DNA from: Candidatus Omnitrophota bacterium
GTDB lineage: Bacteria > Omnitrophota > Gorgyraeia > Gygaellales > Profunditerraquicolaceae
Assembly (NCBI GenBank): GCA_028716965.1
Contig: JAQUOV010000004.1
Location: forward strand, 76,298 to 140,297
Reading direction: 5' to 3'
DNA: 64,000 nt
Shown: one piece after another, positions 8,910 to 33,956 of the stretch
Numbering within the stretch: position 1 is the stretch's first letter
Layout: the number at the start of each line of letters is the position of its first letter
Program-made: the position numbers and the translations under genes
Notes under the pieces: model-generated
Told to the model about the DNA's origin: nothing
The model's input: the letters and a program-made list of their open reading frames with translations, nothing else
Database searches by the model: none

Positions 8910-8922
8910 TTTTGGATTAAAG

Positions 8923-12424: not shown

Positions 12425-12857
12425 AATAGGCGCATTAATTAGAGAGCTGATTGCTGCGCAAGGCTTTGTCTTGGTGGACCTTGTTTTCAGGCAGGATGGC
12501 CCGGGTTTATTAATGAGCCTGCTTGCGGACAGGCCGCAGGGAGGTATCAGCCTGGAAGAATGCAGCCTGCTGAACCGCCTGGTCCGCCGGTCTTTGGATG
12601 AAAAAAATATATTATCCGGCCGATACAGCTTAGAGGTTTCTTCTCCGGGCCTTGACCGGCCTTTAAAGACAAAAGAGGATTTTATACGTTGCTTGAATAA
12701 AGAAGCGGTATTTTTCCTCAATGATTTAATAAACGGGAAATGTGAATGGAAAGGGATAGTCAGCAGGGTTGATGAAACAGCCGTATTCATCGGCCAGGCA
12801 GGCGGGATTTTAGAGATCCCGTTAATTAAAATAAACAAGGCAAAACTGGTAATTTAA
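12399..12857 (+). CDS. rimP: ribosome maturation factor RimP
   Basis: LEVSSPGLDRPL motif; conserved position upstream of nusA. Confidence 0.85.
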   Translation: MDYQVLKNEIGALIRELIAAQGFVLVDLVFRQDGPGLLMSLLADRPQGGISLEECSLLNRLVRRSLDEKNILSGRYSLEVSSPGLDRPLKTKEDFIRCLNKEAVFFLNDLINGKCEWKGIVSRVDETAVFIGQAGGILEIPLIKINKAKLVI

Positions 12858-12947
12858 AGAAAGTATCCTGTTTTTAAGTGTTAGTAGTTTTATTCGAAAA
12901 GTACTATACAGGCGGGATTAATCCGTACATTAAAATGGAGAGTTAAA

Positions 12948-14231: not shown

Positions 14232-14277
14232 TTATTAATATAAAAGACTGTTTTTTAGGCAGTCAGGGGGAGATATT

Positions 14278-16437: not shown

Positions 16438-16512
16438 ACCCCGCACCTTATTGTAATTTAAATATTATTAGGTGTGAGGTTAAAAGAATAGATAAGAGAG
16501 AAGGTGCGGGGT
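16438..16512 (+). promoter_or_regulatory. perfect 12-bp long-range inverted repeat (accccgcacctt ... aaggtgcggggt) spanning from the infB stop to the trpS GTG start
   Basis: 5' arm begins the nucleotide after the infB stop. The 3' arm covers the putative SD (aagg) and the GTG start codon of trpS. The arms enclose 51 AT-rich nucleotides. Confidence 0.4.
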
Positions 16513-17491
16513 GAAGAAGAGAATATTAAGCGGTATGCGGCCTACAGGCAAGCTGCACCTGGGGCATCTGGTCGGCGCATTAGCCAATTGGACAAAACTT
16601 CAAGGCGAATACGAGTGTTTTTTTATGGTTGCTGACTGGCATGCGCTTATGTCGGAGTATGAAAACCCCTGCAGCCTTAAGGCAAACACGCTGGATAATA
16701 TTATTGATTGGCTTTCCTGCGGCATAGACCCTGAAAAATCCACGATTTTTATCCAGTCGCAGGTGCCGGAACACCTTGAGCTTTATTTTATCCTTTCATT
16801 GATTACCCCGCTTGGGCTATTGGAGCGCTGCCCTACCTATAAAGAACAGCTGCGCGAGGTGACCAACAGGGACTTAAGCACCTATGCCTTTTTGGGTTAT
16901 CCGGTTTTGCAGGCTGCAGACATCCTGCTCTATAAGGCCGATGCCGTGCCCGTGGGAGAAGATCAGCTGCCGCATCTGGAATTGACTCGCCAGATCGTGC
17001 GTAAATTCAACCATCTTTATAAGGCGGATTGTTTTCCCGAGCCGAAAGCTTTACTTACAGAAGCTCCCCGGCTCCTGGGATTAGACGGCCGTAAAATGAG
17101 CAAGAGCTATAATAATTATATCGGGTTATCCGAAGAGCCTGAAGATATCCGCAAAAAAGTACAGAATATGATAACCGACCCGCTGCGTATACGCCTAAGC
17201 GATCCCGGCCATCCGCATAAATGCAATGTTTTTAATTATTATTCTATATTCTTCCCGGAAATGAAACAGGAAGGCCAAGAGCGCTGCTCTAAATCCTCAA
17301 TCGGTTGCACCACCTGCAAGAAAGAGCTGGCGGATAAAATAATTAATTTATTGGCCCCTATCCGGGAAAAAAGGAAGGCATTGCTTAAGGATAAAAAGCT
17401 TATCCAGGATATTATCTCTGCGGGCAGCTTAAAGGCGTCTGGCCTTGCTAAAAAGACTATCCATGAGGTAAAGGGCTTACTGAAATTATAA
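16511..17491 (+). CDS. trpS: tryptophan--tRNA ligase
   Basis: Class I HIGH (GKLHLGH) and KMSKS motifs; GTG start. Confidence 0.93.
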   Translation: MKKRILSGMRPTGKLHLGHLVGALANWTKLQGEYECFFMVADWHALMSEYENPCSLKANTLDNIIDWLSCGIDPEKSTIFIQSQVPEHLELYFILSLITPLGLLERCPTYKEQLREVTNRDLSTYAFLGYPVLQAADILLYKADAVPVGEDQLPHLELTRQIVRKFNHLYKADCFPEPKALLTEAPRLLGLDGRKMSKSYNNYIGLSEEPEDIRKKVQNMITDPLRIRLSDPGHPHKCNVFNYYSIFFPEMKQEGQERCSKSSIGCTTCKKELADKIINLLAPIREKRKALLKDKKLIQDIISAGSLKASGLAKKTIHEVKGLLKL

Positions 17492-21051: not shown

Positions 21052-22044
21052 ATGCTTAAACTTAGTGAATTCGATTATCCGCTTCCTAAAGAGCTGATTG
21101 CCCAGCATCCCCTGGAGAATAGAGAAGAGGCCAGGCTCCTGATTGTGGACAGGCAGAAGGGCAGGATCACTCATGCCGTATTCAGGGATGTGGGGAGTTT
21201 TTTTAAAGAAAAAGATTTATTGGTCCTTAATGACACCAAGGTCTTGCATTGCCGTTTAATGGGGAATAAAACAACCGGAGGCAAGGTTGAAATTTTATTG
21301 ACCCGGCGTATAAACGGCTCAACATTTTCCTGCCTGGTCCAGCCCAGCCGCACAAAGGCCGGTGAGAAGATCATTTTTGCCGGCGGCAAGATTACCGGTA
21401 TTTTGAGTGCACGGGGACAGATAAGTTTTAAGCAGCCCGATGCGGATGTAATTTACGATTACGGCGTCGTACCTTTGCCTCCTTACATAAAACGTGAACC
21501 CATTGATTCGGACAAGGTTTATTACCAGACGGTTTATGCTAAGAATGAAGGCGCGCTTGCGTCACCTACTGCCGGCTTGCATTTTACGCCAAAGCTGCTT
21601 GAGGATATCTGCGCGCAAGGCGTCAACCTGGCTTATATAACTTTACATGTCGGCTTAGGCACGTTCCGCCCGGTAAGATGCGAGAATATCCTTGAGCATA
21701 AAATGGAGCCGGAATATTTCCAGGTGCCTGATGAGGCGGTTGCCAAAATCAGGCAGGCCGTCGATGATAAAGGCCGCATAATTGCCGTAGGCACTACTGC
21801 TTTAAGGACACTTGAGACTTTTGCCACAGGCCGCAGGGAAGGGAATACGGATTTGTTTATTTATCCGGGTTATAAGTTTAAATTAGTTGATTGCCTGTTG
21901 ACCAATTTTCATCTGCCGATGACTACGCTTTTTATGCTGGTCTGCGCCTTTGGCGGGGAGAAGCTGATGAAGAAGGCGTATCAGGAAGCGGTGGAAAAGA
22001 AATACAGGTTTTACAGCTACGGCGACGCAATGTTGATTCTTTGA
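21052..22044 (+). CDS. queA: S-adenosylmethionine:tRNA ribosyltransferase-isomerase
   Basis: N-terminal FDYxLPxELIAQxP and full-length match. Confidence 0.93.
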   Translation: MLKLSEFDYPLPKELIAQHPLENREEARLLIVDRQKGRITHAVFRDVGSFFKEKDLLVLNDTKVLHCRLMGNKTTGGKVEILLTRRINGSTFSCLVQPSRTKAGEKIIFAGGKITGILSARGQISFKQPDADVIYDYGVVPLPPYIKREPIDSDKVYYQTVYAKNEGALASPTAGLHFTPKLLEDICAQGVNLAYITLHVGLGTFRPVRCENILEHKMEPEYFQVPDEAVAKIRQAVDDKGRIIAVGTTALRTLETFATGRREGNTDLFIYPGYKFKLVDCLLTNFHLPMTTLFMLVCAFGGEKLMKKAYQEAVEKKYRFYSYGDAMLIL

Positions 22045-22061
22045 TATTTTGCTCTCGGGAT

Positions 22062-22199
22062 ATTGTTCGCGTGCGAAAATTTTCGCCGAGTGCTTCGGTT
22101 TACGTCTCGCTACGGCTACAGTATACTTACGCTGGTAAGATTCTGCCTCCGCTCGACGTAATTCCTCGCACTCTTTTGCCGAAAATTTTCTAATGCACG
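22062..22199. repeat. MITE-like element: imperfect ~25-30-nt terminal inverted repeats (gcgtgcgaaaattttcgccgagtgc / gcactcttttgccgaaaattttctaatgcacgc) around a ~75-nt core
   Basis: Arms read directly. Each arm contains the self-palindrome gcgaaaattttcgc / gccgaaaattttc. The core contains taagattctgcctc, related to the 5' motif of the rplS/rpmE leader family. Confidence 0.4.
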
Positions 22200-22237
22200 C
22201 TCCACAATATCCCTCGACAAAATATCTATAGATAGAA

Positions 22238-23608
22238 TTGACATTCGCGGCAAACTCGCAATTGGCGTTTAGTGATATAGAATCACGAGTTAAGAATATC
22301 ATGGATAAGCTGAAAAATATCTTTAAGAAAAATTCTATTCATTCCGGAAAAGACATAATAAAGAAATGCTATAATTTCTCTTTGTCCGAAATATATGAAT
22401 TTATACTATCTTTATATTTAGAAATTGAAAAAAATGCATATCGCAGTAGTGAAATATTAACAGAGTCTGTTTATTTGAGCACATCCGCTGTTGGATTATC
22501 TCAATTCTGTTCTTCTCCTGAATGCCGTATCAATCGGATTCAAAAAACACTAAAGTCATCTTTGCTTTTGTCCGATAGAGTGTTTATAGATAATCCTTTA
22601 GAGCGCATTGCAAATATAGAACCCAGTAGAGATACGTCGGTATTAAGATCTAATTATTGCTCAGATTTACTTTACATATATTACATTGTTAGTCTTTTGG
22701 ACATGGGTGTACTGATTAATTTACCTAGATGGGTAACTGTATGTAAGCATTGTAAAAGGCAATTAACAAAATCGATAAACGAAACCGAGAAACTGATTTT
22801 GCTAAAGAAAAAGTACTTCTATGAGCTAATGAAAAATGAATTTACAGGCAGTCTAAAATTCGATAGAGACCATTGGGAGGTATTTTATGAAGGGAACCTC
22901 AATCTAATTCCAGATGCTCATCCCATGGTAATAAATATGTTAAAAATACCAAATAAATTAAAAAAATTAAGAAATAGCCGTGTAACATTTAATGACTTTA
23001 TGAAATTTGGTCTGCCTGACAATATTATATACGATCTAATCAGTAATGCGATTTTATATTTGCCATATAAAAGCCGACATGGATTAAACGCTTTAGTTAC
23101 AAATGAACTAGAAGCGAGTATTTTTAATCAATTAATAATGGGTAAAGATAACAAAAAACACGAAATACCGTTTATTAATTTTGATGATATCAATTTAGGT
23201 AGTTTAATAAAGGCAAGGCATAAGCAACCCGAGGAGTTTCAGAATTTTCGGAAGGAAATTAATAAAGTTATTAAAGAAATTAGATTAGGTAATGGAAGCC
23301 AGACAAATGATAAGAATTCACAATTGAATGTTTTCATTAGACAGGAGATTAGCAAAAATTTAAATCGTCTTAATGCCAAGATAAATCATTATACAGGTGA
23401 TCAATTGAAGAAGGCGTTGCAAAGGGGGTTGATGGTTGGGTCTATACTTGGAATTGGTGCTTATACGGGTGTATTGCCAAATTCCGCTCAAATTTTAGTA
23501 TCAGCTAGTCTTGGAATATTACCGCATACTGCAGTAGGATTACTTAACAGAAAAGATGCAATAAAGAATGATAACTGGTATTTTTATTGGCAACTAGCAA
23601 AGAAATAA
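22238..23608 (+). CDS. AT-rich orphan protein with C-terminal glycine-zipper transmembrane hairpin (candidate horizontally acquired toxin/defence-like effector)
   Basis: Long ORF with strongly AT-biased codons unlike all neighbours. TTG start at 22238, or an ATG at 22301 preceded by a TGnTATAGA-like extended -10. No recognisable catalytic domain. The C-terminal 60 aa contain two hydrophobic segments with GxxxG spacing. Confidence 0.55.
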   Translation: MTFAANSQLAFSDIESRVKNIMDKLKNIFKKNSIHSGKDIIKKCYNFSLSEIYEFILSLYLEIEKNAYRSSEILTESVYLSTSAVGLSQFCSSPECRINRIQKTLKSSLLLSDRVFIDNPLERIANIEPSRDTSVLRSNYCSDLLYIYYIVSLLDMGVLINLPRWVTVCKHCKRQLTKSINETEKLILLKKKYFYELMKNEFTGSLKFDRDHWEVFYEGNLNLIPDAHPMVINMLKIPNKLKKLRNSRVTFNDFMKFGLPDNIIYDLISNAILYLPYKSRHGLNALVTNELEASIFNQLIMGKDNKKHEIPFINFDDINLGSLIKARHKQPEEFQNFRKEINKVIKEIRLGNGSQTNDKNSQLNVFIRQEISKNLNRLNAKINHYTGDQLKKALQRGLMVGSILGIGAYTGVLPNSAQILVSASLGILPHTAVGLLNRKDAIKNDNWYFYWQLAKK

Positions 23609-23656
23609 GGGTGACGATTTTTGATTTGTATAGCGGATGGCTTGGATTGTTTCCAA

Positions 23657-23800
23657 GCAGGGCGTTTGCAGGCCGAGCGGGCAAGGTTACCCGGCTATAT
23701 ACGAAGTAGGTAGAGCGAGGCCGAAACCCGAGCGAAGTTTGCCTCGCCGGGGCAAACGAGCGTCCCTGCGGGAAACAAGACAAGACAGACGCGTTAATAT
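23657..23800 (+). repeat. GC-rich structured intergenic element, copy A (candidate cis-regulatory RNA/ncRNA or miniature repeat)
   Basis: About 130 nt aligning with the reverse complement of 55493-55618. Shared blocks are cagggcRtttRcaggccgRgcRggcaWgg, cccgagcgaag, a 7-bp hairpin with compensatory changes (gtttgcc/ggcaaac versus gcctgcc/ggcaggc), and a 3' tail gaaacaagacaa(gaca)gacgcgtta. It ends 10 nt before the tgt ATG. Confidence 0.5.
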
Positions 23801-23809
23801 TGGGAAAGT

Positions 23810-24922
23810 ATGTTTACTTTAATTCATAAAGACAAAAATAGTAAAGCTAGGTTGGGAAAGCTGGTAACTGCGCATGGGGAGATTGATACTCCCGCATTTA
23901 TGCCCGTAGGCACGCATGCTACGATTAAAGGCCTCATGCTTAAGGATGTGGAGGAGGCGGGGGCGCAGATAATTTTGTCAAATGCTTATCATGTGTTTCT
24001 GCGTCCGGGCATAGAGACGGTTAAGAAGGCCGGCGGCTTGCACAAATTTATGGGCTGGGATAAGCCGATACTAACGGATAGCGGAGGGTACCAGATCTTT
24101 AGCCTTGCGCTTTTCCGCAAAATGCATGACCGGGGCGTAGAATTTCAGTCGCATATAGACGGCCTGAAGCATTTCCTTACCCCCGAAGACGTAATTAAGA
24201 TCCAGGAGGATTTAGGTTCGGATATCATCATGCCGCTTGATGAATGCGTGCATTATCCATGTACGCGCGACCAGTCAAAAATAGCAATGGAGAGGACGCT
24301 TGCCTGGGCAAAAAGGTCAAAAGAGGCCTATCATAAAGAAAAACAGGCATTGTTTGGAATTATTCAGGGGGCTACTTATGAGGACCTGCGCAAAGATTGC
24401 GCCGGGCGCATGGTTGATATGGATTTTGACGGTTATTCCATCGGCGGAGTTTCTGTTGGCGAGTCCAGCAATTTAATATATAATATCATTGAGCTGGTCA
24501 GCGGCTTGCTCCCGGAAGATAAACCGCGTTATGCCATGGGTATCGGCTATCCGTTTGATATAGTAGAAGCCGTGGACCGCGGCGTGGATATGTTTGATTG
24601 CGTAATCCCCACGCGTTACGGCAGGAACGGTACGGCTTTTACAAGCAGCGGCAAGGTGATCATCCGTAACTCTTCCTATGCCGAAGATTTCCGGCAGCTG
24701 GATGCCAAATGCGGCTGTTATGTCTGTAAGAATTTTTCCCGGGCGTACCTTAGGCATTTATTCAATGCTAAGGAGATGCTGGGGTTGATTTTGCTTAGTT
24801 TTCATAATGTCTATTTCTTCCTGGATTTAATGCGCCAGATCCGGCAGGCGATAAAAGAGGATAAGTTCAGCCAGTTTAAACAGATCTTTTTAAGCGGCTA
24901 CAATAACCAGATATGCGCATAG
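23810..24922 (+). CDS. tgt: queuine tRNA-ribosyltransferase
   Basis: TPAFMPVGT, zinc site CxCxxC...H near the C-terminus; full length. Confidence 0.95.
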   Translation: MFTLIHKDKNSKARLGKLVTAHGEIDTPAFMPVGTHATIKGLMLKDVEEAGAQIILSNAYHVFLRPGIETVKKAGGLHKFMGWDKPILTDSGGYQIFSLALFRKMHDRGVEFQSHIDGLKHFLTPEDVIKIQEDLGSDIIMPLDECVHYPCTRDQSKIAMERTLAWAKRSKEAYHKEKQALFGIIQGATYEDLRKDCAGRMVDMDFDGYSIGGVSVGESSNLIYNIIELVSGLLPEDKPRYAMGIGYPFDIVEAVDRGVDMFDCVIPTRYGRNGTAFTSSGKVIIRNSSYAEDFRQLDAKCGCYVCKNFSRAYLRHLFNAKEMLGLILLSFHNVYFFLDLMRQIRQAIKEDKFSQFKQIFLSGYNNQICA

Positions 24923-26077: not shown

Positions 26078-26691
26078 TGCTGCGATACGAGAAAAGACTA
26101 AAAGATAAAGGGTATGATCTGGTTATCGGCGTAGACGAGGCAGGCAGGGGGCCTTTGGCCGGGCCGGTAGTGGCTGCGGCAGTGCTGCTGAAGGGATTTT
26201 GTTTCAACAACCGTATTGATGATTCCAAAAAATTAAGCCCCGCAAAAAGAAAAAACGCGTTCTTTGAAATAAAAAATAAATCTATATATGCGATTGCGGC
26301 AGTAAGCCATAAGCAGATTGACCGGATGAATATCCTGCAGGCTGCAAAGCTGGCTATGCGCAAAGCACTTTCAAAGCTATGCAGGCAGTTGGGGTCCGCA
26401 GAGCTAAAACGGGCATTCATACTTATTGACGGTAATATGAAGTTTGAATTAGGCCTTCCTTATCGGAGCATTGTCAAAGGGGATGCCAAGTCTTTAAGCG
26501 TAGCTGCTTCTTCTATCCTGGCTAAGGTGCACAGGGATGCGCTTATGGAAAAGTACCACAAAATTTACCCCGCGTATAATTTTGATAAACATAAAGGTTA
26601 CCCTACAGCCGAGCACCGCATGATCTTAAAAAAGATCGGCCCTTCGGCCATTCACCGGAAGAGTTTTTTAAAGTGCCTGGAAAGAATTTAG
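26077..26691 (+). CDS. rnhB: ribonuclease HII
   Basis: GVDEAGRGPLAGPVV active-site motif. Confidence 0.93.
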   Translation: MLRYEKRLKDKGYDLVIGVDEAGRGPLAGPVVAAAVLLKGFCFNNRIDDSKKLSPAKRKNAFFEIKNKSIYAIAAVSHKQIDRMNILQAAKLAMRKALSKLCRQLGSAELKRAFILIDGNMKFELGLPYRSIVKGDAKSLSVAASSILAKVHRDALMEKYHKIYPAYNFDKHKGYPTAEHRMILKKIGPSAIHRKSFLKCLERI

Positions 26692-27053
26692 AATTTGGTA
26701 AGCAAGCTGAAGATGAGGCTGTGAAATTCATAAAGGCCCGGGGTTACAGGGTTACCAGGCGTAATTATAAAAGCAAGTTTGGCGAAATAGATATAATCGC
26801 AGAGCACAAAGGAGTTATTTGTTTTGTAGAGGTAAAGGCCAGGCATTCAAAGCTGTTCGGCCAGCCCTCTGAAGCTGTTTCTGCGGCCAAGCAAAGGCAG
26901 ATCTGCAAGACGGCAATCTGTTATTTGAAAGAAAATAATCTTTTAGAGCGCCAGGCGCGCTTTGATGTAGTATCGCTCTTGTATACGGAAGATTTGCCTG
27001 GGATTGAATTGATTGAAAACGCGTTTGAATTAACTCCTTTCTTTACCGTTTAA
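26673..27053 (+). CDS. yraN: YraN-family (UPF0102) endonuclease-like protein
   Basis: GEIDIIA...FVEVK PD-(D/E)xK-like motif; usual position after rnhB. Confidence 0.8.
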   Translation: MPGKNLEFGKQAEDEAVKFIKARGYRVTRRNYKSKFGEIDIIAEHKGVICFVEVKARHSKLFGQPSEAVSAAKQRQICKTAICYLKENNLLERQARFDVVSLLYTEDLPGIELIENAFELTPFFTV

Positions 27054-27057
27054 GGCC

Positions 27058-27621
27058 ATGGAATATAAAAAACAGAGTTTAATTAAATATTTGGACGACC
27101 TTTCCGCCAAGCTTCCCGCTCCCGGAGGAGGTTCTGCGGCAGCCTTAAACGCGGCTATGGGAGCCGGTTTAATCAGCATGGTGGTTAACTTTACTTTGGG
27201 CAAGCCCGCATATGCTGCATTTGAGACGCAGCTAAAGGGGATCCTGGTAAAATCCGAGAAATTAAGAAAAGATTTTTTGGAGCTGGTGGATTTGGATGTT
27301 GTCGCCTATCAGAGCAAGGATGCGCGCCAGGCATTGGATATACCGTTGATGCTGGCAAGGCTCTGTTGCGAAGCGGCAAAATTATGCCCGCCGTTAATAA
27401 AAAAAGGCAACGCCAATTTGTTAAGCGATGTGGCGGTAGCGGCCGTTTTCTTTGAGTCGGCATTTGTTGCAGCCTGTTTTAATGTGGAGATTAATTTAAA
27501 AACCCTGGCTCAGAAAAAATTGACTCAAGGCGTAAGGAAAGAGCTGAATCAGAAAAACAGGATTATCCAGAGGATCCGCAGGAATACGGAGGACAGCATT
27601 GGCAAAATTATTAGAGGGTAA
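27058..27621 (+). CDS. cyclodeaminase/cyclohydrolase-family protein (methenyl-THF cyclohydrolase FchA / FtcD C-domain like)
   Basis: N-terminal YLDDLSAKxPAPGGGSAAA signature of the PF04961 family. Confidence 0.75.
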   Translation: MEYKKQSLIKYLDDLSAKLPAPGGGSAAALNAAMGAGLISMVVNFTLGKPAYAAFETQLKGILVKSEKLRKDFLELVDLDVVAYQSKDARQALDIPLMLARLCCEAAKLCPPLIKKGNANLLSDVAVAAVFFESAFVAACFNVEINLKTLAQKKLTQGVRKELNQKNRIIQRIRRNTEDSIGKIIRG

Positions 27622-28441
27622 GCCGGTAGCTGAAAAAATCAAAGAGCAGATAAAGCAGTCGGTGCAATCTCTGGGTTTTAAGCCGGCACTGGCAAGCGTG
27701 ATGGCAGGCGAAAATGCCGGATCCGAGGCTTATGTAAAATCACAGAAGAAAGTCGCCGAGGAGCTGGGGATAGATTACCGGTTCTCTAAGCTGGGCCCGG
27801 ATACATCAGAAGGCAAATTAGTTGGATTTATAGAAGAATTAAATTCGGATAAGTCGGTTAACGGCGTCATTGTTCAACTGCCGCTTCCTGCGCAAATAGA
27901 CTATCAGAAGATCAGCGGGCATATCTGCCCGGATAAAGATGTAGAGGGTATGCATCCGGTTAATATCGGCAAGCTCTTGCTGGGCAAGGCAAGGATCGCC
28001 CCTTGCACGGCCGGGGCGGTAATGGAACTATTGAACTCTACCGGTACAGATTTATACGGAAAGGAAGTAGTCCTTGTCGGCCATAGCGAGATTGTAGGCA
28101 AGCCGCTTGCGCTTTTGTTATTAGATAAATTTGCTACGCTGACTGTTTGCCATATCGGGACCAGCCGGGCAGGAAAACTTGAGGAGCATGTAAGAAGAGC
28201 CGAGGTTTTAATTGTCGCAGTAGGGAAGGCCGGTTTGATCAAGGGCAGCTGGATTAAACAGGGCGCTATTGTTATTGACGTGGGTATAAACAGGGTCGGC
28301 GATAAGATCGTCGGTGATGTGGAGTTTGAAGAGGCACAGAAGCGCGCCGCATATATTACTCCCGTGCCCGGGGGCGTGGGGCCGCTGACCGTAACAATGC
28401 TGATGCGTAATTTAGCAGAAGCAGCCAAAGCGCAGCAATAG
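27599..28441 (+). CDS. folD: bifunctional 5,10-methylene-THF dehydrogenase / methenyl-THF cyclohydrolase
   Basis: LDGKxVA N-terminus, GxSxxVG Rossmann motif, PGGVGP C-terminal motif; TTG start overlapping the previous gene. Confidence 0.93.
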   Translation: MAKLLEGKPVAEKIKEQIKQSVQSLGFKPALASVMAGENAGSEAYVKSQKKVAEELGIDYRFSKLGPDTSEGKLVGFIEELNSDKSVNGVIVQLPLPAQIDYQKISGHICPDKDVEGMHPVNIGKLLLGKARIAPCTAGAVMELLNSTGTDLYGKEVVLVGHSEIVGKPLALLLLDKFATLTVCHIGTSRAGKLEEHVRRAEVLIVAVGKAGLIKGSWIKQGAIVIDVGINRVGDKIVGDVEFEEAQKRAAYITPVPGGVGPLTVTMLMRNLAEAAKAQQ

Positions 28442-28464
28442 ATAAAATCGAAAGGAGGCTCGTA

Positions 28465-29112
28465 ATGGAAATGGATAAATTCCCTTTTGGAGCGGCGGTA
28501 AATTTCGGATGGCGCAAGGTTAAAGAAAACTTCTGGAGCCTGGTCATTATTACCATCATCTGGGTGGCAATCGTCGGTATTCTTAATTCTTCCGCCAAGA
28601 ACTTAGAGAAAACCATGCCCGTGATTTCTTTTCTTTTAAGCCTCTGCGCAACGCTGGTTAATATGGTTATTACCATGGGAGTGACCAGGATAGGGCTGAA
28701 GATTTACGCCGGAGAAAAGTTCAGCATCGCCGGGATGTTTTACTGCGGAGGTGAGCAGGCCCTTAATTATTTTGTCGCCTCCATCCTTTACTTTCTTGCG
28801 GTATTGGCCGGTCTTATCCTTTTGATCGTACCCGGGATCATAGTAATGATCAGGATGGGCCTTTATCTGTATCTTATCGTGGATAAGAAAATGGGGATAA
28901 TTGATTCCCTTAAGGAAAGCATGAAGCTGACCAAGGGAAATGCTTTTAACCTTTTCCTGTTCTGGTTACTTTTGTTGGGTGTAATATTGCTGGGCTTTTT
29001 AGCTTTATTCGTAGGCATACTTGTGGCTATTCCCGTAACTATATTAGCCTATGTTTTTGTCTATCGTTACCTGGAAAGCAGGAAACAACCGGCCTTTGCC
29101 CAGCAATCATAA
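28465..29112 (+). CDS. polytopic membrane protein of unknown function, embedded in the C1 cluster
   Basis: At least four predicted TM helices; no catalytic motif recognised. Confidence 0.5.
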   Translation: MEMDKFPFGAAVNFGWRKVKENFWSLVIITIIWVAIVGILNSSAKNLEKTMPVISFLLSLCATLVNMVITMGVTRIGLKIYAGEKFSIAGMFYCGGEQALNYFVASILYFLAVLAGLILLIVPGIIVMIRMGLYLYLIVDKKMGIIDSLKESMKLTKGNAFNLFLFWLLLLGVILLGFLALFVGILVAIPVTILAYVFVYRYLESRKQPAFAQQS

Positions 29113-29119
29113 ATAATGG

Positions 29120-29190
29120 GCATGCTCCAAAGGCAGGACCCCGGGGCGTAATAGGCGAGAAACAAAACAAGACAGACGCGTTAGGATCCA
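29120..29190 (+). repeat. partial copy of the GC-rich structured element (3' half), ending 10 nt before the metF-like start
   Basis: ggggcgtaataggcgagaaacaaaacaagacagacgcgtta aligns with the 3' tail of copy A; 17 nt are identical (acaagacagacgcgtta). Confidence 0.35.
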
Positions 29191-29196
29191 ACTACC

Positions 29197-30066
29197 ATGA
29201 CATTCAAAGAAAAAATACTGGCGGGGAAATTCCTGCTTACTTCAGAGGTTGGCCCGGCCAAAGGCATACATACGGACCATCTGCTTGCCGAGGCAGAGCT
29301 TTTTCTATCAAAGGCGGACGCGATAAATGTTACTGACCTGCAGAGTTCGGTTATGCGCCTGGGTTCTCTTGCCGTCAGCTGCCTGCTTAAGCAAAAAGGT
29401 TTTGAGCCGATTTACCAGCTGACCTGCCGTGACCGCAACCGCCTGGCACTGCAATCGGATTTATTATCCGCTGCCGCACTGGGGATTCGGAATGTTTCAA
29501 TTTTGACCGGCGACCATCCGGCCCTGGGCGACCATCCGGAAGCCAAGCCTGTTTTTGATTTGGATTCAGTGCAGTTATTACAGGTAGCAAGAAAGCTTGA
29601 GTCCGGACAGGATATGAAAGAGAATAAGCTTGAAGGTGATGCGCCGAAGTTTTGCCTTGGCGCGGTAGTCAACCCGGGAGCTGACCCTTTAGAGCCGCAG
29701 ATCATGAAGATGGAGAAAAAGATTTCCGCCGGGGCCGAATTCTTTCAGACCCAGGCGGTCTATGATATAAAGGCATTTGAAAACTTTGTTGCCAGGACAA
29801 GGCATTTAAAGGTGCCGGTTATGGCGGGGATCGTTTTATTGAAATCAGCGGGGATGGCCCGTTTTATGAATAAGCATGTAGCCGGGGTATTTGTCCCGGA
29901 TGAACTGATTAAAGAAATGGAAGAAGCCAAAGATAAAGCGGCTGCTTCAATTAAAATTGCCAGCCGGTTGATCAAGGAATTAAAACCCATGTGCCGGGGG
30001 ATCCATATTATGCCTATCGGCTGGAACAAAATCGTGCCGCAGGTTTTAGAGGCATCCGGATTATGA
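29197..30066 (+). CDS. metF: methylenetetrahydrofolate reductase (MetF family, short acetogen/archaeal-like form)
   Basis: FAD-binding TIM-barrel motifs of MetF. Length of 289 aa without a C-terminal regulatory domain. Confidence 0.8.
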   Translation: MTFKEKILAGKFLLTSEVGPAKGIHTDHLLAEAELFLSKADAINVTDLQSSVMRLGSLAVSCLLKQKGFEPIYQLTCRDRNRLALQSDLLSAAALGIRNVSILTGDHPALGDHPEAKPVFDLDSVQLLQVARKLESGQDMKENKLEGDAPKFCLGAVVNPGADPLEPQIMKMEKKISAGAEFFQTQAVYDIKAFENFVARTRHLKVPVMAGIVLLKSAGMARFMNKHVAGVFVPDELIKEMEEAKDKAAASIKIASRLIKELKPMCRGIHIMPIGWNKIVPQVLEASGL

Positions 30067-32630
30067 AGACCTCAAACTTGCCGCAGATACCCGGAGCCAG
30101 GAAAAAGGGGGTAATTTTACTGGCTTCCGAAGATGATTTCAAAAAGCTGGATGAGTATCATATTAACGATACTGTTTGCATTGACGGCCCGCTAAATTTA
30201 GCCTTTAACCTGGCCGAGTCAATCCGCGATAAATATAAAGTCAGGATCAAGGTTGTCAGCCAGGATAACCTTCAAAAAGAGCTGCCGGATGGTATTGAGA
30301 TTATCAGCAGCCCTATCCAGGAGATTGTGGGAGAGGGCAGGGCAGAGGCGGTTAAATTTAAAAACGGGAAAGCCGTGGGCGTATGCCTGGTTTTATTTGT
30401 GGATAAAACAATCCCCGATAAAACGCAGGATTTGAACAAGGGAGAAGATATGTCTGATTTACTTCTGCAGCTTGGGACTAAGGGCACGGAGGCGGTATTG
30501 GGTATTACCCGCCAGGCTTTAGATAAGGCGATTGTCCAAAAAGGCCAGGGTGGAAAGATTGAATTTCCCGAGACAAACTACTATTTGCCTTTGATCAATG
30601 CTTTATTGAATATTGAGGTAAAGACCCTGGGAGACTGCTTGCGCGCGTTTTCTCAGGCAGAGATGCTGGCTAAAGGCCGGGCAACTTCCGGAGGCCTGAT
30701 TATTAACAGCTTAGGCGGGATTTTAAATAAAGGGGTAGCTACTTTAATCTGCGAAGAGATTTTAGCAGCCCTGGCGGTGTTGAATCAGGAGCACCCCAAG
30801 GGCGGCTCGGGTTTTATCCCGGATAAAATCCTAAGGTCATTGGGCCTGCAATTAGTTGATGGCAGGATCAGCGGGATCGCCGTAATCCTCGGCCCGGCCG
30901 GGGATGAACAGAAGGCCGTGGATTTAATCCGTAACTTCCAGTCCAAGAGTATTGTCTGCCTGCTGGCGGGAAATGTGAATGGTGTTACTTTTAAGCAGCA
31001 GCTTGAAAATAAGGGTATTGGGCTGGGCTTAGAGAATTATATTGTTGAACTAGGAGAAGATTATTTGTCCGCCATCTATGCGGTAAACTTTGCCGCGCGC
31101 GCCCCGCTTATTTACGGAGGGTTTAAATCCGGACAATGGGAAGAGGTTGCGGATTATATACGTAAGCGCGTGCCGGCATTTGTCCTGCTGCTTGGCCACG
31201 TTGATGAAGTTATAGTGGCTACCGGCTTAGGCGCCCTTGCTTTTGGCCTGCCTATTATTACGGATTTAGATGTGCCGCAATTGCCTAAAATTGATACGAC
31301 TTTATTTGAGGCTTTAGTTACGGAGAAAGATTACCAAAAACTACCCTCGAAATGCTTGCTTACCCGCGGGATAAAAGTAAAGATGTCCGAGGTGAATGTG
31401 CCTGTGCCGTACGCTGCGGCTTTTGAAGGCGAACGCGTGCGCAGGGAGCAATTAGCTGTTGAGTTTGGAGGAAAGGCCAGCGCAGCCATTGAATTCTTAA
31501 GTATTAAAGATGAGGCCGATGTTCTTGACGGAAACGTAGAATTGACCGGGCCGGATATAGACCAGCTTACCCAGGGGTCAAAATCACTGCCCCTGGCGAT
31601 CGCGGTTGATGTCTTTGGCCGTAAAATGCAAAAAGATTTTGAGCCGATCCTGGAGCGCCAGATACACCGTTTTGTAAACTATGCCATGGGGCTTATGCAT
31701 ATGGGGCAGCGGGATATGGTTTGGATCAGGATCTCCAAAGATGCCTATGCCAAAGGTTTCAGACTTAAACACCTGGGGGTTATACTACATGCTATGCTGC
31801 ATCAGGAGTATAGCGCCATAGTAGATAAAGTGCAGGTCAGGCTTTATACTACCCAGGCGGATGTGGACAGCCTGATTGTTAATGCGCAGAAGGTTTTTGA
31901 TGAACGCGATGAACGGCTTGCCGGCATGACCGATGAAAGCGTGGATACGTTTTACTCATGTTTGTTATGCCAGTCTTTTGCCCCAAACCATATTTGCATT
32001 GTTACCCCTGAACGTTTAGGTTTATGCGGGGCATATTCCTGGCTTGACGCAAAGGCTTCTTTTGAAATCACTCCTACCGGGCCGAACCAGCCGGTTGAGA
32101 AGGGCAATATTTTAGATGCCAGGCTCGGGCAATGGGACAATGTCAATCAATTCGTGAAACAGAAATCAAATAATACTATTGATACGGTAAGCATGTATTC
32201 TTTGATGGAAGGCCCGCAGTCATCCTGCGGATGCTTTGAATGCATTGTGGCTATTGTCCCTGAAGCAAACGGAGTGATGATCGTGCACCGGGATTACTCC
32301 GGGCTTACCCCTTCGGGGATGAGTTTTACCACTTTAGCCGGTTCCGTCGGAGGGGGAGTGCAGACCCCCGGTTTTTTAGGCGTGGGGAAATTATATATCA
32401 CAAGTAAAAAATTTATTTCGGCCGAAGGCGGATTAAAGAGGGTGGTCTGGATGCCTAAAGAACTGAAAGAGATGCTGGCAGAAAGGCTGAAAAAGAGGGC
32501 CGTAGAGATCGGAGAGCCGGATTTGTTGGATAAGATTGCCGATGAAACAGCCGCAGTCAGCTCCGAAGAGCTTTTAACATTTTTAAACAAGGTAGCGCAC
32601 CCGGCATTAAGCATGGAACCGATTATTTGA
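30063..32630 (+). CDS. acsB: acetyl-CoA synthase (CODH/ACS A-cluster subunit, AcsB/CdhC family) with ~129-aa N-terminal extension
   Basis: The YYLPL N-terminal motif, the [4Fe-4S] cysteines CLLCQSF...C...C, and the Ni-binding Cys-Gly-Cys (SSCGCFEC) are all present. In frame, an internal ATG at 30450 with a GGAG RBS would give a canonical ~727-aa AcsB. The ATG at 30063 overlaps the metF stop (ATGA). Confidence 0.8.
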   Translation: MKTSNLPQIPGARKKGVILLASEDDFKKLDEYHINDTVCIDGPLNLAFNLAESIRDKYKVRIKVVSQDNLQKELPDGIEIISSPIQEIVGEGRAEAVKFKNGKAVGVCLVLFVDKTIPDKTQDLNKGEDMSDLLLQLGTKGTEAVLGITRQALDKAIVQKGQGGKIEFPETNYYLPLINALLNIEVKTLGDCLRAFSQAEMLAKGRATSGGLIINSLGGILNKGVATLICEEILAALAVLNQEHPKGGSGFIPDKILRSLGLQLVDGRISGIAVILGPAGDEQKAVDLIRNFQSKSIVCLLAGNVNGVTFKQQLENKGIGLGLENYIVELGEDYLSAIYAVNFAARAPLIYGGFKSGQWEEVADYIRKRVPAFVLLLGHVDEVIVATGLGALAFGLPIITDLDVPQLPKIDTTLFEALVTEKDYQKLPSKCLLTRGIKVKMSEVNVPVPYAAAFEGERVRREQLAVEFGGKASAAIEFLSIKDEADVLDGNVELTGPDIDQLTQGSKSLPLAIAVDVFGRKMQKDFEPILERQIHRFVNYAMGLMHMGQRDMVWIRISKDAYAKGFRLKHLGVILHAMLHQEYSAIVDKVQVRLYTTQADVDSLIVNAQKVFDERDERLAGMTDESVDTFYSCLLCQSFAPNHICIVTPERLGLCGAYSWLDAKASFEITPTGPNQPVEKGNILDARLGQWDNVNQFVKQKSNNTIDTVSMYSLMEGPQSSCGCFECIVAIVPEANGVMIVHRDYSGLTPSGMSFTTLAGSVGGGVQTPGFLGVGKLYITSKKFISAEGGLKRVVWMPKELKEMLAERLKKRAVEIGEPDLLDKIADETAAVSSEELLTFLNKVAHPALSMEPII

Positions 32631-32642
32631 AACAGATATTTC

Positions 32643-32671
32643 TTGACGTGGGCATATTAAGTGTATATAAT
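32643..32671 (+). promoter_or_regulatory. near-consensus sigma70 promoter (TTGACG-17nt-TATAAT) for the TPR protein gene
   Basis: Read directly. The -10 overlaps the GTG start proposed by the ORF track, so the gene more likely starts at 32685. Confidence 0.55.
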
Positions 32672-32684
32672 TAATGCAATAAAA

Positions 32685-33956
32685 ATGGATATCCGTCTCC
32701 TGCCTAAATTAACATTTATTATAATTATTTCAATATGTGTTTCCTGTTTTGGCGGGCTGATTTTTGCCCAGGACGAACTGGATACTCCTGCCGGCAATCA
32801 AGAATCCTTAGGAGAGTTCCCGAGCCAGGCCAGGGAATATCGTGAGGAGGGCCTGCAAAAACAGCGGATGGGTAATTTGGCTGACGCCATGAGTTTATAC
32901 CAGAAAGCCATTGCCATAGACCCCGGTTACGCGGTTGCTTATAATGATTTAGGGGTTATTTACGAAGCAACCGGTTATCCCGATCGTGCAAAAGACAGCT
33001 ATTTCAGGGCGATCAAGGCTGACCCCGGTTATTTAAGCGCCTATACCAATATCGCCCTTCTTTACGAAGAGCAGCGTGATTTGGAGAGGGCGGCTTTCTA
33101 TTGGGCTAAAAGGGCGGAATTAGGTTCTTACGACGATCCCTGGACACAGAAGGCAGCTACCCGCTTCAAGGATATCCGCGCGGTTTTATCAAACAGGCCG
33201 GTTGCTGATGCCATTGAAGAAGATGTGCTGGGGTTAATCAAGGATGTTTCAGCGTATAAAACCGCGTTTAGTAAGGCTGATAAGAAGCAGGCGCAGAACC
33301 GTTTACGCAGGGCCAACCAGTATTATAAGAAAAAGAAATTTACCCCTGCGCTGAAAGAAGCATTTGAAGCCCAGATTTTAGACCGGAATAGCCCCGAGAT
33401 CAATGCCTTTATTGAAAAGATAGATGCAGAGCCCGGAGCAGCCAATGCTTATAAGGACCTGGGGGTTATTTATGAAGCAGCGGGTTTCCCCGAGCGGGCG
33501 GAGGAGAGTTACCTTAAGGCGCTTAAACTTGACCCTACATTATTAGGCGCCTATGTTAACTTAGCGCTTTTTTATGAAAAGCAGCGCAACCTGGAGAAAG
33601 CGGAATTTTACTGGTCAAAACGCGCAGAGTTAGGCCCGGATGATGACTCCTGGAAGAAAAAGGCGTCTGAGCGGGTCAAGGATATCCGGGCGGTTGTATC
33701 CAGCAGCCCGATTACCGATACCCAGGAAGCAGAGGTATTGGGTTTAATCAAAGATGTTTCAGAATATAGATCTTCGCTTGATAGAGATGATAAGGCGCTT
33801 GCCCGTGACCACTTTAATAAAGCCAAACAGAGTTTTGCAAAAGGAGATTTGGCCACGGCGATCAAGGAGGCCTTAGACGCCCAGACTTTTGACCAGGATA
33901 ACCAGGAAATCGAGGCATTTATTGAGAAGGCAGAGTTAAGAGCTTTGTCGCGCTAG
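32685..33956 (+). CDS. secreted TPR-repeat protein with internal ~190-aa tandem duplication
   Basis: Signal peptide; two blocks (AYNDLGVIYEATGYPDRA... / AYKDLGVIYEAAGFPERA...) with about 50% identity. Confidence 0.7.
   Translation: MDIRLLPKLTFIIIISICVSCFGGLIFAQDELDTPAGNQESLGEFPSQAREYREEGLQKQRMGNLADAMSLYQKAIAIDPGYAVAYNDLGVIYEATGYPDRAKDSYFRAIKADPGYLSAYTNIALLYEEQRDLERAAFYWAKRAELGSYDDPWTQKAATRFKDIRAVLSNRPVADAIEEDVLGLIKDVSAYKTAFSKADKKQAQNRLRRANQYYKKKKFTPALKEAFEAQILDRNSPEINAFIEKIDAEPGAANAYKDLGVIYEAAGFPERAEESYLKALKLDPTLLGAYVNLALFYEKQRNLEKAEFYWSKRAELGPDDDSWKKKASERVKDIRAVVSSSPITDTQEAEVLGLIKDVSEYRSSLDRDDKALARDHFNKAKQSFAKGDLATAIKEALDAQTFDQDNQEIEAFIEKAELRALSR

Follow-up and report, generated by a model that had tools for sequence, protein, structure and literature searches.

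The acsB open reading frame in this window (the whole 64-kb stretch of Omnitrophota DNA that was analysed) raises the question of how an acetyl-CoA synthase (ACS) came to begin with about 129 amino acids unlike AcsB, at a locus without carbon monoxide dehydrogenase (CODH) genes. The explanation that accounts best for the data, and that we consider likely, is a folate-C1/ACS locus whose AcsB carries a relic domain of an FAD/NAD(P) oxidoreductase (FNOR), left behind after the CODH genes were lost from the locus. On this reading, one reductive history left both traces, the missing CODH and the odd N-terminus. The features are:

27058..27621, + strand, fchA-like methenyl-THF cyclohydrolase, FTCD_C family, 187 aa (Pfam PF04961, 4.8e-42)
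27599..28441, + strand, folD, bifunctional methylene-THF dehydrogenase/cyclohydrolase, 280 aa (Pfam THF_DHG_CYH and THF_DHG_CYH_C)
28465..29112, + strand, DUF975/YciC-like polytopic membrane protein, 215 aa (weak Pfam matches under the gathering score)
29197..30066, + strand, metF, methylene-THF reductase, 289 aa (Pfam MTHFR, 5.3e-34, model positions 4–287 of 287)
30063..32630, + strand, acsB, acetyl-CoA synthase fusion, 855 aa (NCBIfam NF040764)
30075..30398, + strand, predicted relic Rossmann domain, residues ~5–112 (AF2, Foldseek, profile search, hhalign, dN/dS)
30399..30449, + strand, linker, residues 113–129 (pLDDT, alignment variability, dN/dS)
30450..30452, + strand, ancestral acsB start codon, Met130 (aligned to Met1 of the L004 AcsB)
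30450..31379, + strand, AcsB domain 1 (identity and bit-score comparisons)
31959..32234, + strand, A-cluster ligands (alignment to 3i04_M and 6ytt_A)
32661..33956, + strand, TPR protein (Pfam TPR families)

The region is an Omnitrophota folate-C1/acetyl-CoA synthase locus of the form fchA–folD–(variable slot)–metF–acsB, situated within a conserved housekeeping array. The original prediction had named five linked genes (fchA-like, folD, membrane protein, metF and acsB), and Pfam and NCBIfam bear out their positions; the ATGA it described, where the end of metF overlaps the beginning of acsB, is present in the sequence. The fchA-like product scores 138 bits against NCBIfam FchA, under the equivalog cut-off of 275, and its gene is syntenic across 55 related loci. 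The folD gene has a TTG start and overlaps fchA by 23 nt; folD of locus L001 has the identical length and overlap. MetF was earlier called short, which is incorrect, as it covers the Pfam model at full length. In NCBIfam it matches best the MTHFR half of PRK08645, and metF lies immediately 5′ of the FNOR/acsB position in 74 loci. No metV was found in the 64-kb window. The AcsB sequence is 100% identical to an NCBI MAG protein (MDD5561121.1).

CODH, the corrinoid iron-sulfur protein (CFeSP) and AcsE had been said not to be adjacent; none of these, nor CooC or Fhs, is encoded anywhere within the 64-kb window. This check took in open reading frames of at least 150 aa other than 55724–56269 (+ strand, 181 aa), each of which was either scanned or identified from its place in the synteny shared with annotated relatives. 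They are housekeeping genes with the exception of 22238–23608, an unassigned frame; 2405–3100 (+ strand) is among those scanned.

Residues 130–855 of the window AcsB align end to end with the solved bacterial AcsB of Moorella thermoacetica (1oao/3i04), Carboxydothermus hydrogenoformans (1ru3) and Clostridium autoethanogenum (6ytt), with E-values of ~1e-199 to 1e-202, and all A-cluster cysteines and the three-domain layout are common to both. C633, C636, C645 and C655 correspond to the [4Fe-4S] ligands and C722-G723-C724 to the Ni-Ni site, as aligned with the cysteines of Moorella 3i04_M and C. autoethanogenum 6ytt_A. These ligands are invariant in 57 homologues. The intact ligand set that had been noted earlier thus holds against solved AcsB, and the window AcsB is predicted to be a complete, ligand-intact acetyl-CoA synthase with a three-domain core. 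It differs from the solved proteins by an extra N-terminal Rossmann-type domain and a markedly diverged domain 1, and from CODH/ACS by the lack of acsA/cooS, acsCD and acsE nearby.

The N-terminal extension is real. NF040764 matches AcsB with 969.5 bits (cut-off 800) but covers only residues 140–855, in agreement with the earlier observation of an in-frame segment of ~129 aa unlike AcsB. More than 100 Omnitrophota AcsB homologues have the extension. Among 120 homologues listed (732–882 aa), 118 have 839–882 aa and match 98%–100% of the query with 74%–100% identity; the other two are shorter, with the extension partly or wholly missing. The long form includes 23 species representatives, and it is also kept where the gap between metF and acsB is 19 or 154 nt. 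The dN/dS ratio is 0.11–0.16 for the relic (computed at near-saturated dS), 0.055–0.08 for the AcsB core and 0.17–0.58 for the linker. The extension is therefore conserved at the translation level and is not an annotation artefact, and purifying selection acts on the relic. The linker varies in both length and sequence between homologues, has an AF2 pLDDT below 50 and is probably disordered.

Pfam gave no match to the first ~130 residues even at E ≤ 10. The AF2 model of the relic (pLDDT ~70–85) displays a beta-alpha-beta-alpha-beta plus beta-meander topology, and Foldseek searches of the PDB with this model yielded AIF, NADH oxidase and glutathione reductase (E ~2e-5, probability 1.0), as well as FMO. 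On the predicted structure, the relic is an NAD(P)-binding-type Rossmann domain of the two-dinucleotide-binding flavoproteins. A profile search of 1.84 billion representative proteins gave only 97 matches, with E-values down to 1e-30 over FNOR residues ~111–225. Most of these are proteins of ~290–450 aa aligned at residues ~111–240; the remainder comprise a single fusion of 1024 aa and a handful of short fragments. An hhalign comparison of the relic with the long FNOR gave 97.2% and E = 3.6e-11. Database alignment and structure prediction, which had been proposed as checks for the N-terminal 129 aa, thus point to FNOR-type Pyr_redox_2 proteins and a Rossmann fold. The kinship with FNOR is visible only by family-level profile, fold and synteny searches.

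Across 80 Omnitrophota species surveyed, four types of locus occur, all sharing one tgt...aroA synteny. The first type is metF-(cooC)-cooS-cooF-FNOR-acsB (18 species), with an FNOR of 418–450 aa that consists of Pyr_redox_2 and Rubredoxin_C. The second has metF, a short degenerate FNOR (294–300 aa) and a separate acsB (727–737 aa), and is found at L004, L005 and L007. The third is a full FNOR::AcsB fusion of ~1025 aa (L003 and L030), and the fourth is the truncated relic-AcsB fusion seen in the window. Of 78 informative species loci, 68 have FNOR or its relic next to acsB or joined to it as a fusion. The relic is what remains of the FNOR from a cooS-cooF-FNOR module once present at the same position between metF and acsB.

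The order of steps is inferred from this series of locus types. The cooS and cooF genes would have gone from the locus first; FNOR would then have lost its C-terminal domain and cofactor motifs, become fused to AcsB, and finally been trimmed to one domain and a flexible linker, with the old acsB start codon persisting as Met130. The linker stands in place of the C-terminal half of the FNOR FAD domain. In phylogenetic trees the main truncated clade has the full fusion L003 as its sister (bootstrap 88% for AcsB, 98% for PolA). The truncated fusions are not monophyletic in the AcsB-core tree, where L019, for instance, falls with separate-FNOR loci at 100%, although one signature is common to all relic domains. 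The history is therefore less simple than a linear series and involved cassette exchange or repeated events. The scatter of truncated forms could also suggest a mobile module, i.e. an extension newly recruited by domain accretion from an unrelated Rossmann protein and not a remnant of a neighbouring FNOR. This is most improbable, as, out of 1.84 billion proteins, those closest to the relic are the FNORs encoded at this very locus, where the full-length fusions sister to the main truncated clade also occur. In addition, deletion can yield a lone NAD domain from the discontinuous FAD/NAD fold, and the reverse is impossible.

The FAD domain has been lost from the relic and its glycine motif is degenerate (G42-P-L-N-L-A47). 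The first glycine and final alanine of G-x-G-x-x-A are kept, but the second glycine, which contacts the pyrophosphate, is replaced by variable, often bulky residues. Compared with the long FNOR, the NAD domain also lacks ~17 residues that follow beta-2. Decay of the dinucleotide motif runs from long FNOR to short FNOR to relic. With a decayed glycine motif and no FAD domain, the relic would almost certainly be without redox chemistry; judged from the motif loss only, dinucleotide binding is unlikely. A ligand-binding sensor, tuning ACS to redox or acyl-CoA status by binding NAD(P)(H), a different dinucleotide or a ligand with an ADP moiety, for example CoA, is a doubtful but not negligible alternative. 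The retained Rossmann-type fold, the two conserved motif residues, the strong purifying selection and the many invariant charged residues (K14, D25, D36, K59, K63, E87, E95 and K98) are in accordance with a sensor, while the altered second glycine, the ~17-residue deletion and the lack of a sequence-level match to any nucleotide-binding family argue against it.

The original prediction had also pointed to an internal ATG at 30450 that would give a standard-length enzyme. This ATG is present with a Shine-Dalgarno-like AAGGGAG five bases 5′ of it, and Met130 aligns exactly with Met1 of the separate 727-aa AcsB in L004. Met130 is the ancestral acsB start because it aligns with the start methionine of relatives' separate acsB. 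The strong internal ribosome-binding sequence and ATG suggest that a second, minor isoform of standard length may therefore also be made from 30450. Together with the poorly conserved linker, these properties could be read as signs of a non-functional leftover, with translation from 30450 or a dispensable N-terminus not yet decayed. Such a leftover is very improbable: over 100 homologues, 23 species representatives among them, keep the frame open even where overall identity falls to 74%, the relic dN/dS is low even though dS is near saturation, Met130 is missing in several homologues, and the 30063 start is translationally coupled to metF. For the same reasons (long-form conservation, purifying selection and a Met130 that is not universal) the starts at 30063 and 30450 do not form the either/or choice posed earlier.

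Domain 1 in Moorella CODH/ACS is the CODH-docking and CO-tunnel domain. Its identity between cooS-linked and FNOR-degenerate cassettes is 43.5%, as compared to 77.6% and 67.4% within these groups, and domains 2 and 3 display no such gap. Against solved AcsB domain 1, the window sequence scores 113–164 bits and the AcsB of one cooS-linked Omnitrophota relative 159–188 bits. The Moorella alcove position F229 is Tyr in the window. In these comparisons domain 1 is the only AcsB domain remodelled in cassettes without CODH genes. The relic may persist as a part of ACS with a structural or docking role, most likely in concert with the remodelled domain 1, whose CODH is no longer co-encoded. The full-length AF2 model of AcsB (pTM 0.41) is too poor to give a docking position for the relic. 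The gene set may couple folate-bound C1 units with acetyl-CoA through ACS and a CFeSP/methyltransferase encoded elsewhere; ACS would use free CO or cleave acetyl-CoA, and would not take part in full CO2-to-acetyl-CoA fixation.

Among solved structures the long Omnitrophota FNOR comes closest to AorC (8c0z chain E; full length, E = 3.8e-53), the FAD/NAD subunit of AorABC, a tungsten aldehyde oxidoreductase complex. AorC is an NAD-linked flavoprotein docked on a polyferredoxin subunit. This agrees with the arrangement inferred for CooF-FNOR, although the catalytic partner of AorC is different and the window protein keeps the central domain only.

An ACS without a CODH partner that is tied to folate C1 metabolism is also known from Dehalococcoides mccartyi. 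In 2014 Zhuang et al. reportedly described an incomplete Wood-Ljungdahl pathway in this organism, in which a CODH-less ACS cleaves acetyl-CoA to yield methyl-THF. Unlike the window, Dehalococcoides is not known to have metF, and no FNOR relic is known there.

The CooS-CooF-FNOR unit itself (Ni-CODH, ferredoxin-like CooF and an FAD/NAD(P) oxidoreductase, COG1251) is known from Clostridium ljungdahlii/autoethanogenum and Geobacter sulfurreducens (PMC6344411, PMC4703632); as of a 2019 survey no biochemical study of its FNOR had been reported. Related Omnitrophota carry exactly cooS-cooF-FNOR directly 5′ of acsB, and the window relic shares ancestry with the NAD domain of this FNOR. The window differs in that cooS and cooF are absent and ~112 FNOR residues are left, fused to AcsB and without cofactor motifs. 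No description of direct cooS-cooF-FNOR-acsB linkage or of an FNOR-AcsB fusion was found in the literature searched.

In the same phylum, Seymour et al. 2023 (PMC10066038) describe a partial Wood-Ljungdahl pathway in Velamenicoccus archaeovorus and other Omnitrophota, with methyl-branch genes and AcsB-E but without Fdh, AcsA and CooS/F. The paper gives 24 Omnitrophota species that keep AcsB-E and lack AcsA/CooS/F genome-wide, including members of Profunditerraquicolaceae and Velamenicoccaceae. These two families, as named there, contain degenerate-FNOR and truncated-fusion loci of the present survey. In the passages searched, gene presence and absence are scored, and nothing was found on the FNOR gene, on its decay or on an extension of AcsB.

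The membrane protein between folD and metF had been proposed as a MetF anchor or electron-transfer component. Its gene has the same orientation as its neighbours, and DUF975-like homologues recur in this slot at five other, divergent loci (L010, L011, L041, L046 and L064). Most of the roughly 60 related loci have nothing in this slot, and elsewhere it holds DMT_6 (15 loci), tRNA methyltransferase (a few), DUF975 (only 6) or other open reading frames; the closest relatives, L001 and L002, are among the loci that lack the protein. The similarities to DUF975, GPDPase_memb and UPF0259 are weak and all under the gathering score, Pfam and NCBIfam gave no redox-cofactor family match, and no cofactor motif is visible in the protein. 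A MetF-associated subunit is thus highly unlikely; the slot is a variable one, and the protein is conserved neither as a partner of MetF nor as part of the C1 module.

The gene 3′ of acsB encodes a TPR protein, as had been stated, and matches Pfam TPR families. It holds this position in 59 loci, whatever the cassette type. A promoter-like TTGACG-17-TATAAT lies at 32643–32671, and the gene is probably a separate transcription unit outside the C1/ACS function.

The compact methyl-branch cluster ending in acsB that was originally predicted is confirmed in the window by the ORF map and by family scans. All five genes are present, and an intact acetyl-CoA synthase (ACS) core lies close behind fchA, folD and metF in the same orientation.

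Genes of the cluster
27058–27621, + strand, fchA-like gene (FTCD_C)
27599–28441, + strand, folD (ORF map, family scan)
28465–29112, + strand, 215-aa polytopic membrane protein (weak DUF975/YciC-like similarity only)
29197–30066, + strand, metF (Pfam PF02219 MTHFR, E-value = 5.3e-34)
30063–32630, + strand, acsB (NCBIfam NF040764, CODH_ACS_al_bet)

The metF gene was first described as short, but it is of full length and covers positions 4–287 of the 287 in the Pfam MTHFR model. Its neighbours are the DUF975-like gene and acsB, and its stop codon overlaps the acsB start as ATGA, as had been noticed. No MetV-like ORF is found among the window ORFs of at least 150 aa that were scanned or placed by synteny.

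The AcsB has the same amino acid sequence (100% identity) as NCBI MDD5561121.1, a protein of a Candidatus Omnitrophota MAG. It scores 969.5 bits against NF040764 (cut-off 800), and positions 2–705 of the 705 in the model correspond to residues 140–855. The complete set of A-cluster ligands attributed to it is present: C633, C636, C645 and C655 of the [4Fe-4S] cluster and C722-G-C724 of the Ni-Ni site align with Moorella and C. autoethanogenum, and these cysteines are invariant in 57 homologues.

Genes for CODH, CFeSP and AcsE, predicted not to adjoin acsB, are not found anywhere in the 64-kb window. The ORFs of at least 150 aa that were scanned or placed by synteny, a set that includes all but one on the + strand (181 aa, 55724–56269), yielded no CODH (Prismane), CFeSP, AcsE, CooC or Fhs gene. 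AcsC/AcsD and AcsE, absent from the window, adjoin acsB in the distant relatives L078, L080, L086 and L087 (L numbers denote acsB loci of related Omnitrophota used for comparison). In 22 related loci an fhs gene (formate-THF ligase, 564 aa) separates yraN from fchA; it is missing at the 26673–27058 junction of the window. Since fhs is missing from both the locus and the whole window, the methyl branch here is without its entry enzyme, at least locally.

The N-terminal extension of AcsB matches no Pfam family in its first ~130 residues, even at E ≤ 10, and a PDB sequence search with a profile of the extension gives only noise (E ≥ 0.3). Among the 120 best homologues listed (74%–100% identical), 118 have a chain length of 839–882 aa and match 98%–100% of the query; in the remaining two, of 789 and 732 aa, the extension is wholly or partly missing. 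L001 (89% identity) has a metF-acsB gap of 19 nt and an AcsB of 855 aa, and L002 (77%) a gap of 154 nt and an AcsB of 853 aa. An alignment of 26 extensions displays a highly conserved block at residues ~5–112 followed by a variable linker (residues 113–129), with 25 invariant columns that include NDTVC39, G42, EIVG90, G92, EAVK98 and C108. The dN/dS values (Nei-Gojobori, window against four relatives) are 0.11–0.16 for the conserved block, 0.17–0.58 for the linker and 0.055–0.08 for the AcsB core. The original prediction also offered an internal start, Met130 (ATG at 30450). This residue aligns with Met1 of a separate 727-aa AcsB and is substituted in several homologues. The conservation of the long form, the selection acting on it and the replacement of Met130 show that the long form is the conserved product. 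Thus the in-frame extension of ~129 aa is real and selected, and a choice between the two starts is not supported; a minor second isoform from Met130 may also be made.

The structure prediction suggested for the extension was run with AlphaFold2 on the 26-sequence alignment, and shows a beta-alpha-beta-alpha-beta unit with a beta-meander. The pLDDT is about 70–85 in the conserved block (termed here the relic) and <50 in the linker. Foldseek matches in the PDB are the NAD(P)-binding domains of apoptosis-inducing factor, NADH oxidase, glutathione reductase and flavin monooxygenase (E-value ~2e-5, probability 1.0, TM 0.55–0.60). A full-length AlphaFold2 model built with 57 close homologues (pTM 0.41) has a poorly modelled C-terminal half and does not show the docking position of the relic.

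Searching 1.84 billion representative proteins by profile yielded 97 matches in all, mostly at residues ~111–240 of ~290–450-aa proteins, along with a single protein of 1024 aa and some short fragments. The longer of these proteins (Pyr_redox_2 + Rubredoxin_C, COG1251) has a central NAD(P)-binding domain homologous to the relic. It is the FAD/NAD(P) oxidoreductase (FNOR) of the known CooS-CooF-FNOR unit (PMC6344411, PMC4703632), and its closest solved relative is 8c0z_E, the FAD/NAD subunit of a tungsten aldehyde oxidoreductase complex (E-value = 3.8e-53, full length). The relic profile matches FNOR residues ~111–225 with E-values down to 1e-30, an HMM of short FNORs matches the window protein at 9e-34, and hhalign of the relic with long FNORs over the NAD domain gives 97.2% probability (E-value = 3.6e-11). 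In the alignment, window residues ~5–118 correspond to residues ~108–226 of the ~294-aa proteins. The FAD-binding domain (N-terminal GxS/GxxG, C-terminal GD) has no window counterpart to HMM positions 1–109 and ~225–294. The GxGxxG/A motif is not intact: GGGLIG of the long FNOR is G42-P-L-N-L-A47 in the window, and homologues vary at the second position. A Rubredoxin_C-type C-terminal domain is present in the 418–450-aa forms and absent from the short, fused and window forms.

The acsB loci of 80 Omnitrophota species representatives were fetched, ORFs were called and the HMM of the short proteins was run; flanking ORFs were clustered and cluster representatives annotated with Pfam.

Forms of the FNOR at acsB loci
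Long FNOR, 401–450 aa, Pyr_redox_2 + Rubredoxin_C, between metF and acsB: 25 species loci
Short FNOR, separate, 265–313 aa, without C-terminal domain: 19 species loci
Full fusion, whole FNOR fused to AcsB, 1027 aa: 1 species locus, plus L003
Truncated fusion, relic fused to AcsB, 842–865 aa, window type: 23 species loci
No FNOR, nothing detected between metF and acsB: 10 species loci
Uninformative, AcsB N-terminus outside locus: 2 species loci

L004, L005 and L007 display a ~294–300-aa Pyr_redox_2 protein between metF and acsB, and L003 a 1024-aa full Pyr_redox_2::AcsB fusion. The window and these four loci have a common synteny, tgt-trmD-rplS-rnhB-yraN-fchA-folD-metF-X-acsB-TPR-polA-glgA-coaE. 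Several forms occur within one family: L015 (truncated fusion, Amyimicrobium silvilacustre), L030 (full fusion, genus B70-G16) and L028 (short FNOR, genus UBA6233) are all Profunditerraquicolaceae. In 18 of the 25 long-FNOR loci, cooS (a ~635-aa Prismane/CODH) and cooF (~150-aa 4Fe-4S), sometimes with cooC, lie upstream; both cooS and cooF are absent from beside the relic in the window. No Prismane/CODH gene is present within ±10 kb in any of the 23 truncated-fusion species loci, and none of the best 120 CooS homologues listed (at least 79% identity) was matched to a contig of a truncated-fusion acsB. Three informative loci among the ten that lack an FNOR have full acs clusters (acsC, RACo, acsE).

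A few loci are irregular. The FNOR of L032 (6776–7583) is split into ORFs of 162 and 117 aa, the fused acsB of L073 (4421–7037) is split into ORFs of 397 and 497 aa, and L022 has no metF ORF of at least 80 aa between folD and acsB; these breaks are possibly pseudogenisation or assembly errors. In L005 (separate FNOR), a Rex-like regulator and a NuoE/NuoF/HydA-type [FeFe] hydrogenase set (11272–16903) follow acsB and replace TPR-polA.

The FNOR motifs are lost in steps. Long FNORs have GNSAAG as FAD motif and GGGLIG as NAD motif, and also a conserved YCRCLISY and a C-terminal AGD. Short forms L079 (a Velamenicoccus species) and the similar L081 retain the GD, and L079 also GxGxxA. Most short and fused forms are without the second glycine of the NAD motif, the GD aspartate, the cysteines and the C-terminal domain, and the window retains only G42-x-x-x-x-A47 of the cofactor motifs. 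The short, fused and truncated forms also all lack ~17 residues that follow beta-2 in the NAD domain of long FNORs. The FNOR partner was therefore probably a pseudoenzyme already before fusion and trimming.

YCRCLISY lies at residues ~38–47 of the long FNORs next to cooS-cooF (e.g. L056, 8743–10008); C41 is nearly invariant and C43 invariant, and none of the short, fused or relic forms retains the motif. A redox-active cysteine lies at about this position in CoA-disulfide reductases and NADH oxidases/peroxidases.

ACS is normally studied as one half of the CODH/ACS machine, and domain 1 of the Moorella enzyme touches CODH and carries the CO tunnel. A neighbor-joining tree of 81 AcsB cores (100 bootstraps) splits cassettes with a degenerate FNOR (short, fused or truncated, without cooS) from cooS-linked ones at 100%. 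This split is carried by AcsB domain 1 alone.

Amino acid identity of AcsB domains (between types; within cooS-linked; within degenerate-FNOR)
Domain 1: 43.5%; 77.6%; 67.4%
Domain 2: 68.4%; 69.2%; 71.6%
Domain 3: 76.1%; 75.8%; 79.2%

Against solved AcsB domain 1 structures the window scores 113–164 bits, compared with 159–188 bits for a cooS-linked relative. The position of F229, an alcove residue of Moorella AcsB (PMC11321310), is Phe in 25/25 cooS-linked sequences and Tyr in 40/46 degenerate-FNOR, fused or truncated Omnitrophota AcsB. In the window it is the Tyr of APLIYGG (~31125–31127; AcsB core alignment column 236). A tunnel signal was also sought at the positions of Moorella A110, A222 and A265; cooS-linked and CODH-less AcsB of Omnitrophota have the same residues there.

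In the AcsB-core tree the window falls within the main truncated clade (97% support), and the full fusion L003 is the sister of that clade (88%). A tree of concatenated flanking genes with missing data was unreliable and was replaced by a tree of PolA only, in which these groupings have 100% and 98% support. The AcsB-core tree does not unite the truncated fusions as a whole in one clade (0% bootstrap for all-truncated monophyly): the cores of L019, L017, L018, L020, L021, L024, L025 and L027 are scattered relative to L047, L026, L028, L041 and L030. L019 groups at 100% with separate-FNOR loci; mid-gene recombination is ruled out for it, as its core is nearer to these relatives over the whole length. 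Such a distribution may reflect repeated truncation or an exchange of cassettes. All relic domains have one signature and the same N-terminal boundary, both lacking in short FNORs, and the PolA tree also interleaves the cassette types. The simplest reading is that Omnitrophota have exchanged the metF-acsB cassette laterally, with repeated truncation as a possible alternative.

The feature is a vestigial but conserved domain of an FNOR, fused to an ACS that is probably decoupled from CODH. Its parts are of known kinds (bacterial ACS and the CooS-CooF-FNOR unit); no description of the fusion was found in the searchable literature. The original observation is confirmed and its interpretation partly supported. 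In one published study, 24 Omnitrophota species, including the closed V. archaeovorus genome and members of Profunditerraquicolaceae, are without AcsA/CooS/F and have kept AcsB-E and a methyl branch without Fdh (PMC10066038). We infer that the window ACS works without a co-encoded CODH. Acetyl-CoA would be linked to methyl-THF by ACS together with CFeSP/MeTr encoded elsewhere, and the ACS would either draw on free CO or run in the direction of acetyl-CoA cleavage.

The relic is a conserved Rossmann domain on a flexible linker and its cofactor motifs are lost. These properties suggest a non-redox structural or docking module that has co-adapted with domain 1; the main rival is that the domain acts as a ligand sensor. 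A bolder version of the docking reading, which we hold to be rather unlikely, is that the degenerate FNOR or relic replaced CODH in the role of a partner that ACS domain 1 requires. There it would cap or gate the CO-tunnel face, or dock a low-potential electron donor for reductive activation. The result would be a self-contained, CODH-independent ACS that uses free CO, or cleaves acetyl-CoA for folate C1 units, in ultra-small Omnitrophota, with a cassette that may spread laterally between lineages.

This uncultured clade thus displays steps by which an ACS was uncoupled from a co-encoded CODH: cooS and cooF were lost from the locus, and the flavoprotein became a probable pseudoenzyme, then an ACS fusion and finally one domain still under selection, with remodelling confined to the CODH-docking domain of ACS. 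This explains the puzzling 855-aa "AcsB" annotation in hundreds of MAGs. The genomes also provide evidence for a physical link in Omnitrophota between ACS and FNOR, which partners Ni-CODHs; no biochemical study of FNOR had been reported as of a 2019 survey. The relic offers a handle on how a CODH-less ACS works. In pathway calling, "AcsB present, CooS absent" in Omnitrophota should be taken as a structured evolutionary state and not as MAG incompleteness.

The membrane protein gene between folD and metF was suggested to encode a MetF-associated component, of which there is no sign, the slot being mostly empty or occupied by other genes. A DUF975-like gene is present in six loci (the window, L010 at 8460–9110, L011, L041, L046 and L064), a ~108-aa DMT_6 membrane protein in 15 and a tRNA U5-methyltransferase in a few, with other small ORFs elsewhere; in L005 and L007 the slot coordinates are 5521–5850 and 6800–7126. 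The slot is a recurrent insertion site.

The remainder of the window consists of housekeeping genes. Over the whole window, all of the ~50 credible genes lie on the + strand; every 2-kb bin has a positive GC skew, so that cumulative skew rises monotonically. Family scans identify purA, uppS, cdsA, dxr, rseP, ispG, proS, nusA, infB, trpS, scpA, the trp operon, argS, recJ and others, and synteny with annotated relatives assigns ruvB, queA, tgt, trmD, rplS, rnhB, polA, glgA, coaE, rho, prfA, prmC and aroA. Scans of the 64 kb gave no tRNA genes, Rfam families or PADLOC systems, and promoter and terminator scans within the cluster gave no signal above chance.

A 456-aa ORF at 22238–23608, between queA and tgt, has no Pfam match (E ≤ 1e-5) and no PADLOC match; the stretch 22001–24000 has 36% GC, compared with ~46% elsewhere. 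In relatives the queA-tgt position is empty or holds other unrelated genes, e.g. an HNH_5 protein in L001, and it looks like a variable site or insertion hotspot. The 910-aa protein at 56960–59692 has an FHA domain together with a Ser/Thr protein kinase domain and a long array of TPRs. Just past the acsB stop, TTGACG-17-TATAAT (32643–32671) is the best promoter-like match in the region (11 of 12). It coincides in part with the GTG start listed for the TPR gene, so that the true start is probably a later Met, and the TPR gene is probably its own transcription unit.
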